Positions 15,001 to 18,000 of a stretch of 38,544 bases of DNA are shown here, piece after piece. The stretch's first letter is position 1. Every line of letters starts with the position of its first letter. The stretch lies in NCBI GenBank assembly GCA_043814095.1, contig JBDRKI010000028.1, forward strand, positions 1-38,544, written 5' to 3'. Origin of the DNA: Armatimonadota bacterium. GTDB taxonomy: Bacteria; Vulcanimicrobiota; JACPDS01; JBDRKI01. The position numbers were made by a program.

Positions 15001-18000
15001 GCGCCCAGAGATCAAACCTCTTTGAGGCTCCGTCCAAAAATTTGTTAAGATTCTCTTTTGTAATTTTATACGCTTTCGGCATCTTACCCTCCATGATTGT
15101 GCTTATTTTCACAAGTAACGCCTAAATAAAAAACGAGTGTATTACTCATTCAGCAAAAATGTTTCTATTATGTTTTAAAATATCCTTCTTTTTTACATTG
15201 CATTATATTGTTTTTTTATACTTGTTTTTTGAAAAATCGGATATAGAATACTACTTTATTATTAATATGTCAACTTGGCCATTAAAAGGTAAATATTTCA
15301 GGCATTTTCATCTTATGCGCGGATGATTTATTCATTCTTTTTACTTTTTCAACCTTTTTGCCGGACACCCTAGGCGTTCTTTTCCTGCCCAGAGCTTCTA
15401 TTATACAATCAAGCTCTTCATAAGTTATGCCTATCTCTTTCTCATCTGTCTGGTTCTCCCAGAGGCCGGCGCTTGGCGGCTTTTCTATGATTTCATCAGG
15501 AATATTTAAATCTTCAGCAAGCTTTCTTACTTCTCTTTTTAAAAGATTTCCAAGAGGCAGTATATCAACACCGCCGTCCCCGTATTTTGTAAAATACCCT
15601 ACTGTAAGCTCTGACCTGTTCCCTGTGCCGGCCACAAGATAATTAAACTTATTAGCGTAAAAATACAGCATGATCATCCTTATCCGGGGCTTTAAATTGG
15701 CTAATAGAAGCTTGGGAAGTTTTGAAGCTTTCTTAACTTTAAGAATCTTTAAAAAAGCATTATATACCGGCTCTATATCTATTTCTTTAAGGTTAAGATT
15801 AAACTTTCTTTTAAGCATAAAAGCGTGTTTTCTATCATGGGGGTTGCTATTACACGGCAGAAAGAGAAAAAGAGAGTTCTTAGGAAAGGCACGCTTTGCA
15901 AGAACAGCCGCAACAGCTGAATCTATCCCCCCGCTCAGGCCACATATTATGCCCTTTGAACCGCTTTCTTTAACCTTGTTTTTAAGCCATTTTATTAACT
16001 TTTTCTGCATAATTATACCTCATAAACCCTTAAAAATAATGGTGATTTTACACTATATTTTCTACTTTCCGCAATATCTCCCTTCTTTTTCCAAAAAACT
16101 TAAGAATACTCCATTTGACCTATATTTTACACAAAAAAATACTCCTTTTGACCTATATCCGTATATGCACGGGGGGGGGTATAATATAAGTGGGAAGGGG
16201 GAAAGACACTTCCCGTAAGCAAGATTTAAAGGCATAAAAAGCCATTAAATAAAACAAAAAGAAAGGAGGAAACCTAAATGAAAAAGCTGATAATAGTCCT
16301 TATCGCGATAGCTTTCATGAGCGCGGCCGCGTTTGCCGGTTCAACCGACACTCAGACCGTGTATTTTGAAATTGACGCGATTAACGAAATTGCTTTTGAC
16401 GCGGATGAAACCTTAACAATTAACTCAGCAACAGCAGGTTCTGAACCAGATCTGGACAGCGTGGTTTGTCAGTATGCGATAACCACAAACGAAACAGCCG
16501 GTAAAAAGATAACAGGCGCGCTTAACGCCAATATGCCTGCCAGTACCGGACTTATGGTAACTGCTGGAGCACCTTCAACCGGTTCCAGTGCCGGCCAGGT
16601 AACACTTAATGCTACAGCGGCAAGCTTAGTAACCAGCATAGAAACAGTTGCACAGGGCAGCATAAACTACACCTTAACTTTAGATGCTGATGTCGCAGCC
16701 GGTCTTCCCGCTGACGGTTCAAGAGTCATAACCTTCACATTATGTGACGAATCCTAAACAGATACTTTAAGTTAGTGTTGAGATAAGGCGGTCTTCATGG
16801 CCGCCTTTTTCTTATATTTTTGTTCCCTTACTTATTATGTTATGTTTTTTCAATTTTACCGTTCTTTTTTGTTATTCTTGCAGGAAATTTCATAAAAAAA
16901 ATAAACTTAAGATACATTATGGAAGCAATACATATACTGGCACTGGATATATATAACGCGAAAATAAGGAACTGCAAGCCTTATCAGGAGCAGATAGTTG
17001 ATTCTTTTGATGACGGAAAACTTAAGGTTGCCTGGGACATTATAAAAGAAAACTATTTCCTGCGCGGGGATGAGGTTCTTGAACAGATATGTGACGGATG
17101 CCCTTTAAATATATATACGCTCCAGCAGGGCTGCCAGGGAGAAATATTTAACCTTAACCTTCTTTTAAACTACTTAAAAATAAACTCTCCCGATTCTCCC
17201 TTGCTGGAATATAATTTCACTGACGCGAAACTCTCTTTCGCCGAAGTGCAGGAGATAAAGCAGGAACTTGAAGAGATTTCTTCAAACGCTAGAAAAAACA
17301 AATGGCCCGCAGCCTGCGTCTATTATGAAGGAAATCCCGTTACCCTGCCTGCCAGAGACGAGAAAGAAGAACCCTACTTCTATCCGTGGGCCGGAGAAGA
17401 AGAAAAGCTCTTTGCTCACGGCAATGAAGCGTACAGGTTCTGCGTTAGGAAAGAAGGCATAGTAATACAGCGCTCTTTGGTTGAGATACCCCATACATTC
17501 ATACACCTATGGAAAAAAGAAGGGAAAACTTTCGGGAAGACAACCAAGGATGAAGTAATTGTTTTTGAAAAAGAACTGGGGATATTCCCTTCCTGGGACA
17601 CTGTAGATAACGAAAGAGAAAGTGAACTTATATTCAAAGAAATAAATTCGGATATTGTATTAAGATATGTGATGGACACATTAAAAGCGTTTCTGGATAC
17701 CGCCGCGATTCACCATATCGGTTTGAACGTATCGGAAGTATTATAGGGGGTAGATTGGATCCTGTAAACGAACAAATAAAAAAGTTAAAGAATAAGTTAA
17801 AACATCATTCTGACGATTATAATCTCTGCTATGAGCTCGGGATGCTTTACCTGCAGAGAGGCGAGACCGGTTTTGCCCGGAGAATGTATAAACAGGCCTT
17901 AAAAATCAATCCCGCGTTTTCCAAAGCGCTTTTAATGCTCAGCATTATGCATAAGGAATCTACGGAAGAATCTAAACAGATACTGCATAAAGCCGCGCTT

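Follow-up and report, generated by a model that had tools for sequence, protein, structure and literature searches.

Poly-G runs separating an upstream element from the –10 box in promoters of a paralogous secreted-protein family suggest promoter phase variation in a groundwater bacterium

Results

An expression cassette with a G9 run next to its –10 box

The window (i.e., the whole stretch of DNA analysed, being the 38,544 nt of contig JBDRKI010000028.1) stems from an Armatimonadota genome referred to here as G000, the contigs of which are given as C-numbers. It contains one copy of an expression cassette of ~700 nt, located at 16097–16814 and composed of the following parts:

16097–16814, + strand: cassette copy, with two upstream elements, G9, TATAAT, structured leader, gene and terminator
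16107–16120, + strand: distal upstream element (TACTCCATTTGACC), situated 33 nt 5′ of the proximal copy
16134–16158, + strand: proximal upstream element (AAAAAATACTCCTTTTGACCTATAT), presumed activator site; block of high information in the run-free logo (21 promoters)
16140–16153, + strand: core of the proximal element (TACTCCTTTTGACC), from sequence inspection
16154–16170, + strand: non-repetitive part of the spacer (TATATCCGTATATGCAC, 17 nt), i.e., the flank between element and run
16171–16179, + strand: G9 homopolymeric run, presumed slippage tract, directly adjoining TATAAT
16180–16185, + strand: TATAAT, presumed –10 box, kept in other cassette promoters
16192–16214, + strand: putative transcript start (G at 16192) and 5′-terminal hairpin GGGAAG...CTTCCC (MFE fold)
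16224–16250, + strand: second conserved leader hairpin, AUUUAAAGGC-loop-GCCAUUAAAU (MFE fold)
16265–16269, + strand: ribosome-binding site GGAGG (sequence)
16278–16757, + strand: gene for a 159-aa secreted beta-sandwich protein (open frame, profile and fold prediction)
16785–16814, + strand: intrinsic terminator with a 9-pair stem and a T run 3′ of it (terminator prediction)

The two upstream elements (TACTCCnTTTGACC) lie 5′ of the G9 run, and in this copy the gap between proximal element and TATAAT measures 26 nt. The element, the G9 run and TATAAT were thereby located as the initial annotation of this DNA had them, and its ~700-nt cassette was recovered by blastn, with homology over ~16097–16787 at some 20 other places. 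Unique sequence lies on the nadE side of the cassette (15282–16010) and in the variable centre of the gene (16420–16690). No –35-like hexamer was found 16–18 nt 5′ of TATAAT (a promoter scan paired no –35 with it). Since position 16192 is situated 7 nt 3′ of TATAAT, transcription would be expected to start there. Among 20 leaders, the MFE fold has the 5′-terminal hairpin open with the first G in 12, while a second leader type has its hairpin set a few nt further in; the second hairpin was predicted in 19 of the 20, with stem sequences that differ between the two leader types. An Rfam search of 15900–17000 returned nothing credible (best MicX, 16.7 bits vs. a threshold of 75), and the leader hairpins match no family.

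Long G runs are concentrated at the promoters of one gene family

The encoded protein belongs to a family for which tblastn retrieved 30 HSPs in 29 loci of G000, and a profile built from 14 copies retrieved 30 loci with 31 open frames, a frameshift having split one gene in two, in agreement with the 30–31 paralogs proposed earlier. Uninterrupted runs of G7 to G14 were counted in 18 distinct cassette promoters, so that the range given in the initial annotation stands and its number of about 19 does not; the extra promoter may be that of C99, in which the run is interrupted (G5TG4). The lengths were G7 (four), G8 (two), G9 (five), G10 (two, where three had been listed), G11, G12 (two), G13 and G14, each of which may be off by one base as an assembled homopolymer length. 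Several cassette copies are situated at contig ends, and contig C89 breaks inside the run.

Long tracts were over-represented at cassette promoters compared with the rest of the genome. G000 holds 34 G/C runs of at least 8 nt, and 15 of these lie within cassette promoters, corresponding to 14 distinct loci, as C5 ends with the same 141 nt with which C59 begins. The concentration noted before is therefore real, at 15 rather than 16 of 34, and the accompanying warning against counting the C5/C59 duplicate twice was justified. Among runs of at least 10 nt, seven of eight were in cassettes, the eighth being at a ragged contig end (C20:68). G9 runs outside promoters occur, for example, at C47:17537, C108:698 and C124:821. 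Moreover, G7 directly followed by TATAAT would be expected by chance in ~0.04 copies on both strands (from base composition, GC 0.393), yet was observed in 18 distinct copies, i.e., 17 in cassettes and one at C79:5786. Of the 18 run-bearing cassette promoters, 17 retain TATAAT, and run-free promoters have TAtAAT. The composite promoter pattern occurred 24 times in G000, 0 times in a reversed control and in 0 of 40 relatives.

The runs lie in a spacer whose length is otherwise held at 25 nt

In a logo built from 21 run-free promoters, three blocks stand at fixed spacing, namely AAAAATACTCCnTTTGACCkATAT, then, after a low-information spacer, TTAtAAT, and then tTAGGrG; a purine block 6–7 nt 3′ of the –10 hexamer is conserved. 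Of the run-free proximal sites (n = 25), 19 have TA[TAC]AAT at a distance of exactly 25 nt and two have it at 26 nt, while in the remaining four a one-mismatch hexamer at 25 nt was seen by eye in three and none in one; the 25-nt gap claimed for other promoters with this element was thus confirmed. This would be a promoter class without a –35 box, the run-free members of which keep TATAAT 25 nt from the element. Because the element of these members ends 25 nt before TATAAT, it would span about –61 to –33, the site for a class II-type activator. ComK was considered as such an activator, but there is no ComK in the genome, and the sigma-H consensus fitted no promoter block by eye.

The 17 promoters with both element and run showed gaps of 22 (two), 24 (three), 25 (five), 26 (three), 27 (three) and 28 nt, confirming the reported range of 22–28 nt and centring on 25 (mean 25.2, SD 1.7). 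The gap is exactly 25 nt in 5 of 17 and within 24–26 nt in 11 of 17, and many copies may therefore be on together. The non-repetitive flank amounts to 13, 15, 17 or 18 nt among copies, inversely to run length (Spearman –0.59, p 0.012, n = 17), and a variance of the gap as small as the observed one arose in 0.3% of 100,000 shuffled flank/run pairings (p 0.003); both values overstate independence, since the paralogs are related. Among family copies without an intact run, the gap was 25 nt in C36, C49, C91, C108, C1:21953 (GGTGCGGG) and C99 (G5TG4), and 26 nt in C102:145152.

The distal element was found 32–33 nt 5′ of the proximal one in 13 promoters of the cassette type (C49, C102:145152 and 11 whose run is intact), 22 nt 5′ of it in C9 and C99, and in none of the non-family promoters. 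These spacings equal three and two helical turns, respectively, which would fit a protein that binds to a single face of the helix.

The run changes faster than its flanks

All four promoter pairs whose 38 flanking nt match without a mismatch differed in run length (by 2.25 nt on average), indicating that the tract mutates faster than by point substitution, with the reservation that these pairs are related paralogs and overstate independence. The runs are uninterrupted in all 18 promoters despite the age of the paralogs, the mean synonymous difference of which is 0.46–0.70. With synonymous sites near saturation, ratios of means (dN/dS) were 0.14–0.26 in all regions and do not demonstrate positive selection on the variable centre of the gene, where the non-synonymous difference is about twice as high (0.35 vs. 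0.15). Mosaicism was evident in C75:40302 and C91:939, which have nearly identical centres (pS 0.087) and diverged ends (pS 0.375), and promoter and leader are far more alike among copies than the synonymous sites of the genes. Since mutS is present in the genome, slippage would proceed without a boost from loss of mismatch repair.

The product is predicted to be a donor-strand fibre subunit

The 159-aa protein has a signal peptide for Sec export (cleavage at about AFA/GS, by eye), a conserved N-terminal strand (residues 21–37), a variable centre and a conserved C-terminal strand (residues 141–157). It matched 0 Pfam families, as had been stated before, and found no meaningful match in NCBIfam; the family profile had 0 matches among PDB sequences. 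The best Foldseek matches were donor-strand fibre subunits (CupB6, cannulae, FimA and CfaB; E 2e-3 to 1e-2), and VIA-align returned the Hyper2 tube (Z 7.0), CS17 (6.9), cannulae (6.7) and CfaB (6.6), all with Z < 8 and hence middling according to the tool.

A trimer prediction scored 0.80 vs. 0.13 for the best control, passing a mark attained by 20 of 30 proteins with a solved structure that pairs one chain with itself and by 1 of 23 with a solved single-chain structure; this pass may nevertheless reflect the model's memory of solved donor-strand fibres. The runs agreed in at least 98% of contacts, with a partner pLDDT of at least 87, and placed residues 21–35 against residues 36–57 and 146–156 of the next copy, i.e., the N-terminal strand in a groove. 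The family protein is accordingly predicted to be a beta-sandwich that polymerises via its conserved N-terminal strand. Its earlier description as pilin-like is supported for fold and predicted assembly, but not for family membership.

The Atlas model resembles WxL (TM 0.66) and SCPU (TM 0.60) as a structural likeness, while the sequence is in none of the Fimbrial, SCPU and WxL families (with no Pfam match to the WxL domain PF13731), and the usher family PF00577 was unmatched in G000. Of two partner genes, one encodes a soluble-looking protein of 266 aa and the other a protein of 949 aa, and both recur in a second genome of the phylum (G034), at 48% and 31% identity, respectively. The 266-aa partner, in the C1 operon (C1:10118–10918), had no Pfam match to DUF916 or DUF3324, and by its Atlas features resembles WxL-interacting proteins, WxLIP families occurring in 14–41% of the members of the nearest clusters.

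Transcripts and relatives

At 85% likeness, RNA contigs from three runs of one study yielded 7 short contig pieces, where RNA from two groundwater studies had been reported. An exact piece of 222 nt covers 16490–16709, the centre of the window copy, and two further pieces fall at 16310–16424; none of the contigs extended over the promoter or the run, an absence that carries no weight. Within one sample, RNA contigs derived from at least three paralogs. The exact match to a copy with a gap of 26 nt may mean that 26 nt is permissive, that the sampled population differs, or that the library holds DNA. One RNA contig matches the leader of the paralog at C75:23457, and its start, by arithmetic (43 loose letters), would be the GGG 7 nt 3′ of TATAAT; since a single contig cannot show a transcript start, it was not counted as evidence.

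The cassette promoter pattern had 0 matches in metagenome contigs (from which the records of G000 itself were possibly left out) and was found in 1 of 41 genomes, namely G000; the collections searched held no genome or contig of the same species. The nearest foreign homolog was 51% identical, a scan of genome contigs with the family alignment gave one weak and partial match, and in a phylum sample the family was present in 2 of 301 genomes (G000 and G034). Beyond this, the family comprises 1339 cluster representatives (E 0.001 or better), with relatives named from Poribacteria, Nitrospirae, Zixibacteria, Armatimonadota and Thiohalocapsa. Among 70 metagenome homolog loci with at least 100 nt of upstream sequence, a G/C run of at least 7 nt within 250 nt was present in one (L132, a G9 not adjoining TATAAT), and T9 was located upstream of the gene in two. 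The poly-G promoter is therefore not a trait of the whole family.

Discussion

A candidate phase-variable promoter

A G run between a conserved element and TATAAT has the anatomy of a contingency tract, provided that these blocks function as promoter parts, as their arrangement suggests. Slipped-strand promoter phase variation, as proposed in the initial annotation, is in our judgement the best and a probable reading, and the Bordetella fim promoters are its nearest counterpart. The promoter anatomy, a gap held near 25 nt, a fast-changing run and a secreted product of a polymerising type all speak for this proposal, which is thereby supported in part. The G7–G14 run in 18 promoters would set the distance from an activator-type element to the TATAAT –10 box, and replication slippage within it would lengthen or shorten the gap by one base at a time. 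The activator would thereby be rotated and displaced relative to RNA polymerase, turning transcription of that one copy up or down. With a separate tract at each of about 17 paralogous genes, we propose that a population would produce changing subsets of its secreted-subunit repertoire. These subunits would polymerise head to tail, with the conserved N-terminal strand inserted into the neighbouring subunit and the variable centres facing outwards.

The weightiest alternative to phase variation, which we consider unlikely while taking it seriously, holds that the G runs are fixed, either tuning different constitutive levels or being near-neutral relics within 24–26 nt, and that lengths diverged between paralogs over evolutionary time without frequent reversible switching. 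It would account for the length differences being seen between paralogs only, for 11 of 17 gaps falling within 24–26 nt, for the presence of mutS, and for RNA of at least three paralogs in one sample, as expected from co-expression; moreover, the G7–G8 runs (6 of 18) are short for high-rate slippage. It fits poorly, however, with the different run lengths in all four identical-flank pairs and with runs that remain uninterrupted though synonymous sites are near saturation, since unselected runs should decay, as they did in C99, C1:21953 and C102:145152. The G9–G14 runs (12 of 18) are furthermore in the range of lengths that vary within Treponema pallidum isolates (7–11 G; PMC7864442) or between Bordetella strains (C10–C18; PMC1891110). 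That the runs or their lengths are an assembly or sequencing artefact is scarcely credible: homopolymers are error-prone, and copies at contig ends and the break in C89 might raise suspicion, but the 18 loci occur in unique contexts with conserved flanks, and their lengths span 8 nt, far above a one-base error.

Two further explanations give the run another role. If the upstream element were itself the promoter, and GACC(G/T)ATAT its –10 box (sigma-28-like or for another alternative sigma factor), the 5′ leader would include both the G run and TATAAT, and a change in run length might act on RNA structure instead of initiation. GACCGATAT is similar to GCCGATAT, the –10 box of Bacillus sigma-D; an A-run is present upstream where a TAAA –35 could sit; and the genome has flagellar basal-body genes (FlhA at 825 bits, FliG and rod proteins) and three small sigma factors (a SigH equivalog and two of ECF type). 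We nonetheless regard this as improbable, because no FliA/WhiG reaches the cut-off in a genome that is 98.97% complete (the best TIGR02479 score, 53.3 bits vs. a cut-off of 189.6, falls in the primary sigma gene) and no flagellin was found in it. The G of the CGA core expected in a sigma-28 –10 box is T in all 17 run-bearing promoters that keep the element, while 8 of the 21 run-free promoters have T or C there. Contrary to a sigma-28 promoter, the supposed spacer TACTCCnTTTG is the most conserved part, and neither a TATAAT exactly 25 nt away across unconserved spacers nor the purine block 6–7 nt later would be explained; the phasing of the distal copy (22 or 32–33 nt) likewise fits a bound protein. 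Alternatively, the run might serve recombination, as a G-rich structure promoting gene conversion among the paralogs; such a structure lies upstream of Neisseria pilE. The C75:40302/C91:939 mosaic (pS 0.087 in the centre, 0.375 at the ends) and the marked likeness of promoters and leaders relative to synonymous sites would agree with this, and in type 1 leaders G7 or more, GGG and GGGGG could by eye give four G tracts. Type 2 leaders, however, have only one further GGG, so that their G8–G10 copies cannot give four tracts; one loop would measure 12 nt; and the spacing compensation around 25 nt would be left unexplained, which makes this role very improbable.

Comparison with known systems

As described in PMC1891110, the promoters of Bordetella fim2, fim3, fimX and fimN contain a C-stretch, with a model in which the distance from activator region to –10 decides expression. 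The likeness extends to a homopolymeric G/C tract inside the promoter, to several paralogous subunit genes each with its own tract, and to subunits that are donor-strand fibre proteins in Bordetella (PMC1891110) and are predicted to assemble so here. The geometry, with a tract between activator region and –10 and no –35, would fit as well, with a presumed activator here. In contrast to the four genes of a respiratory pathogen, we counted 18 promoters in an uncultured groundwater bacterium, and the BvgA-activated fim box has as its counterpart a presumed activator and a lineage-specific element (0 of 40 relatives). Length variation and its effect are demonstrated in Bordetella and are a proposal here. 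Unlike the fim proteins, moreover, the protein falls outside the Pfam fimbrial families, and no usher was found. The Bordetella fim genes lie apart from the assembly operon.

In T. pallidum, according to PMC7864442, poly-G runs of 7–12 occur in the promoters of paralogous putative surface proteins (tprE, G, J and L, and TP0126), where run length decides promoter activity; in tpr promoters poly-G of 7–11 varies in vivo and affects reporter output. Its tract lies in the sigma-70 –35/–10 spacer (17-nt optimum, TP0126) or near the start, whereas the tract of the present promoters separates a non-sigma element from the –10 box, at a presumed optimum of 25 nt, and T. pallidum is a host-restricted pathogen whereas the present organism is free-living. 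Mycoplasma gallisepticum vlhA (PMC6258824) likewise combines a large surface-protein family with a promoter-linked repeat per copy, but uses a GAA trinucleotide repeat ~40 nt upstream and encodes lipoproteins, as opposed to a mononucleotide run adjoining the –10 box and Sec-exported beta-sandwich subunits. The kind of switch is therefore already known, and the present candidate is notable for its scale and its free-living host.

As in chaperone-usher pili, archaeal cannulae and the Enterococcus WxL (Elr) pilus, a small beta-sandwich is predicted to place its N-terminal strand in its neighbour's groove, against the C-terminal strand. The family differs from the chaperone-usher and WxL systems in having no Fimbrial, SCPU or WxL sequence membership and no Pfam usher in G000. 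In Elr pili the donor strand is N-terminal and the chaperone is of the DUF916/DUF3324 type, according to a preprint that confines the WxL system to Bacillota (bioRxiv 10.64898/2026.10.17.759780), whereas relatives of the present family are named from the five groups listed above.

Implications

The promoters offer a natural spacing series of 22–28 nt for an unstudied activator-type promoter class. The proteins represent a large unnamed family predicted to form donor-strand fibres, with conserved partner genes; a recent claim limits WxL-type donor-strand pili to Bacillota, and the family is relevant to it. Surface-protein families whose promoters are switched by repeats are known almost exclusively from pathogens adapted to a host. 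More speculatively, and with less confidence than in the switch as such, we suggest that this free-living groundwater bacterium, which has no sequenced close relatives, might practise combinatorial surface variation: ~17 poly-G promoters, slipping independently of one another and all sharing one lineage-specific activator element of unusual 25-nt geometry, would each drive a different donor-strand fibre subunit of a widespread unnamed family, which may be a counterpart, across many phyla, of WxL and chaperone-usher pili, and selection would be exerted by phages or grazers rather than by an immune system. If true, a system of this size would show that contingency loci contribute to surface diversity in environmental communities as well, with phages or predators as the presumed selective pressure.

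Layout of the cassette in the window

The cassette under study is a compact expression unit on the + strand (16097–16814), situated between nadE on one side and an unnamed ORF on the other, and comprises the features listed below, where nadE is included as its neighbour.

Features of the cassette and its nadE neighbour (window positions)
15282–16010, − strand: nadE (PF02540 at 1.4e-78)
16107–16120, + strand: distal element, TACTCCATTTGACC
16134–16158, + strand: AAAAAATACTCCTTTTGACCTATAT, containing the proximal element
Between the proximal element and the G run, + strand: unique spacer of 17 nt
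16171–16179, + strand: G9 run, directly abutting TATAAT
16180–16185, + strand: TATAAT
16192–16277, + strand: leader (about 86 nt; two hairpins predicted)
16265–16269, + strand: GGAGG, ribosome-binding site
16278–16757, + strand: family gene of 159 codons
16785–16814, + strand: terminator

A consensus promoter scan found no –35-like hexamer paired with this TATAAT. The leaders of the window copy and its paralogs are of two types, i.e., type 1 (GGGAAGGGGGAAAG...CTTCCC) and type 2 (GGGAAGAGGAAACAAGGTTTCTT), both with a predicted hairpin near the 5′ end and a second hairpin, the stem sequence being type-specific. No Rfam match to the cassette leaders was obtained.

G runs are concentrated in the cassette promoters

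The genome (2.50 Mb, GC 0.393) contains 86 G/C runs of at least 7 nt and 34 of at least 8 nt. An uninterrupted run was present in 18 distinct cassette promoters (G7 in four, G8 in two, G9 in five, G10 in two, G12 in two, and G11, G13 and G14 once each), which hold 15 of the 34 runs of at least 8 nt (14 distinct loci) and seven of the eight runs of at least 10 nt. The concentration reported in the initial annotation is thereby upheld, while its figures (19 promoters, three of them G10, and 16 of the 34 runs) were each one too high by the present count. Three cassette-type promoters carry decayed runs (C99, C1:21953 and C102:145152; C numbers denote contigs of this genome).

Outside the cassettes, the sole G/C run of at least 10 nt lies in a contig end (C20:1–80) that consists of long C runs alternating with G runs (C7, C7, G11) and looks like low-quality or artefactual sequence. 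G9 runs were also seen at C79:5786–5794, C37:89154–89162 and C95:3698–3706, one abutting a TATAAT ahead of an ORF of 237 aa that has no Pfam family and two located a few bases 5′ of an ATG, where a ribosome-binding site would be expected; these are possible extra contingency loci.

Element-to-TATAAT distance and run-length change

In the 17 promoters that combine the element with a run, the distance from element to TATAAT measured 22 nt (twice), 24 nt (three times), 25 nt (five times), 26 nt (three times), 27 nt (three times) or 28 nt (once), with a mean of 25.2 nt. The unique flank was 13, 15, 17 or 18 nt long and tended to be shorter the longer the run (Spearman –0.59, p 0.012), and a variance as small arose in 0.3% of 100,000 random flank/run re-pairings, both p-values being generous since the copies are kin. 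The gap was exactly 25 nt in the family copies without an intact run (C36, C49, C91, C108, C1:21953 and C99). Moreover, the four promoter pairs whose 38-nt flanks are identical all differ in run length, and the runs are intact even though the family genes are old paralogs (mean synonymous difference 0.46–0.70). Taken together, the gap distribution, the 25-nt run-free copies, the identical-flank pairs and the intact runs argue, at the level of sequence comparison, that the element-to-TATAAT distance is under selection and that the G tract changes faster than its surroundings.

A promoter class shared with other genes

The element also occurs outside the family, a relaxed search yielding 51 sites in the genome: 18 run-bearing cassette promoters (with the C59 duplicate counted), C99 with its interrupted run, seven distal sites and 25 run-free proximal sites. 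TA[TAC]AAT lies exactly 25 nt downstream in 19 of these 25 and 26 nt downstream in two; of the others, three show a hexamer with one mismatch at 25 nt, judged by eye, and one lacks a hexamer. The logo of 21 run-free sites displays three conserved blocks separated by unconserved sequence, i.e., AAAAATACTCCnTTTGACCkATAT, TTAtAAT, and a purine-rich tTAGGrG beginning 5–6 nt past the hexamer. Twenty-four matches to the composite pattern were found in the genome, none in the reversed control and none in 40 relatives.

If TATAAT occupies –12 to –7, the element would reach from about –61 to –33, the position of a class II-type activator, and a putative activator may bind there. Cassette-type promoters usually carry a second element copy 32–33 nt (13 promoters) or 22 nt (two promoters) upstream, corresponding to three and two helical turns, respectively. 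Genes downstream of the non-family promoters mostly lack a Pfam family, the exceptions encoding an L,D-transpeptidase, a caspase-domain lipoprotein and an RHS-repeat protein. Some 20 sites (e.g., C37:31002, C46:13960, C119:17766, C123:7597 and C123:8908) form a lineage-specific regulon with element, 25-nt gap, TAtAAT and purine-rich start, whose products are mostly without a Pfam family or obvious signal peptide, several starting with M-(S/G/T)-x-(E/I)-I-N-P.

The initial annotation had also considered that GACC(G/T)ATAT might itself be a sigma-28-like –10 box. Flagellar basal-body genes are indeed present (C54:7465–24000, C55:12823–13689 and C75:64512–65165, with FlhA at 825 bits, FliG and four rod-type proteins), but neither FliA/WhiG nor flagellin (PF00669) was found at threshold in this 98.97% complete genome, and its only four sigma-70-family genes encode a primary sigma, a SigH equivalog (TIGR02859 at 342 bits) and two ECF types. 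Furthermore, the key G is replaced by T in all 17 run-bearing cassette promoters that keep the element and by T or C in 8 of 21 others, the presumed sigma-28 spacer is the best conserved part of the element, and the fixed TATAAT would be left unexplained. A sigma-28 box is considered very improbable.

Family size and cassette copies

A tblastn search gave 30 HSPs at 29 loci, and a profile built from 14 copies matched 31 open frames at 30 loci. Full-length close copies number 22; those at C48:55231 and C75:58018 are broken and that on C108 is truncated. DNA homology over the whole cassette (~16097–16787) was detected at some 20 places. Because C5 ends in the same 141 nt with which C59 begins, this copy was counted once, as previously advised. 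The C89 contig stops within its G run, and several further copies lie at contig ends.

At C23:56630–56671 (− strand), no family gene lies downstream of a G13 cassette promoter and its leader and ribosome-binding site; instead, opposite-strand pieces of group II intron domains (C23:56233–56521, + strand; RF02001 at 92 bits, RF01998 at 71 bits) are followed by a terminator, and the family gene seems to have been replaced or destroyed. At C102:145114–148151, the gene driven by a cassette-type promoter with a decayed run (CACAGGCAGGGC), a 26-nt gap and the distal element is no family gene but encodes an RHS-repeat protein longer than 964 aa (PF05593 at 1.8e-65). Finally, C75:40302–40760 and C91:939–1397 hardly differ in the variable centre (pS 0.087) while their conserved ends are diverged (pS 0.375), a mosaic that suggests gene conversion among copies.

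The protein and its candidate partners

The window protein had no Pfam, NCBIfam or PDB sequence match. The wider family counts 1339 cluster representatives at E≤0.001 (682 at ≤1e-10), and members from Poribacteria, Nitrospirae, Zixibacteria, Armatimonadota and Thiohalocapsa are labelled hypothetical. Among the paralogs, the signal peptide and residues 24–37 and 141–157 are near-invariant and the centre is variable. The AlphaFold model (pLDDT 63) is a beta-sandwich with the conserved N-terminal segment unplaced. Top Foldseek matches were CupB6, Pyrodictium cannulae, FimA, CS20 and CfaB (E 2e-3 to 1e-2), and VIA-align against 48,161 chains ranked the Hyper2 tube (Z 7.0), CS17 pilin (6.9), cannulae (6.7) and CfaB (6.6) highest, all below the clear-match level of Z 8.

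A three-copy prediction scored 0.80 (best of three controls, 0.13), passing a mark reached by 20 of 30 proteins solved as same-chain pairs and 1 of 23 single-chain proteins, with contact agreement of at least 98% and partner pLDDT of at least 87. Residues 21–35 of one copy pack against 36–57 and 146–156 of the next, a predicted donor-strand geometry, although the pass may stem from the model's memory of solved fibres.

In a core operon (C1:6198–11939, − strand), family genes flank 159-aa, 266-aa and 949-aa proteins. The latter two are conserved (48% and 31% identity) beside seven clustered family genes in G034, another genome of the phylum (C14:42901–48961). The 266-aa protein has two domains and the 949–1023-aa protein has Ig-like and CarboxypepD_reg domains with a beta-rich middle; both are candidate assembly factors. 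By Atlas features, the neighbourhood of the 266-aa protein includes clusters with families of WxL-interacting proteins, and the Atlas model of the subunit is near WxL (TM 0.66) and SCPU (TM 0.60). An October 2026 preprint describes a pilus of Enterococcus WxL proteins, which a DUF916/DUF3324 chaperone primes for N-terminal donor-strand exchange, and gives the system as confined to Bacillota (10.64898/2026.10.17.759780). The earlier label "pilin-like" is probably fair for how the modelled protein would work, while membership in any named pilin family was not borne out.

RNA evidence and distribution

RNA contigs from three runs of one study cover parts of the family gene and leader but not the G run. 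One of them matches the variable centre exactly over 222 nt, which points to the presence of the window copy, or of an identical one, in an RNA library; the gap of the window copy in this assembly is 26 nt. The cassette pattern was absent from metagenome contigs and from 40 relatives, the nearest foreign homolog is 51% identical, and none of the genomes compared was closer than the same order. A poly-G promoter as a family-wide trait was rejected, as only 1 of 70 metagenome homolog loci with at least 100 nt upstream has a G/C run of at least 7 nt within 250 nt upstream, and that run does not abut a TATAAT. In a sample of 301 genomes of the phylum, two carried the family. Both the poly-G promoter and the growth of the family to 30 loci are innovations of this lineage.

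Comparison with known phase-variable promoters

Among known systems, the Bordetella fim promoter set comes closest, described as having a C-stretch between the activator region and the –10 box at four fimbrial subunit genes (PMC1891110). Further parallels are the poly-G promoters reported for T. pallidum tpr (PMC7864442) and the GAA repeats reported for M. gallisepticum vlhA (PMC6258824). The 12 best-matching papers on promoter phase variation by homopolymeric tracts all concerned pathogens or commensals, a weak statement about what has been published. The hallmark of phase variation is a tract whose length varies at a single locus; the differences described here lie between paralogous copies. 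The cassettes, runs and promoter anatomy are real with high confidence; that slipped-strand phase variation, as first proposed, operates at these promoters is a somewhat favoured reading. The type of mechanism is already known, and the present system stands out by its 18 promoters, its free-living uncultured host and its unusual promoter geometry.
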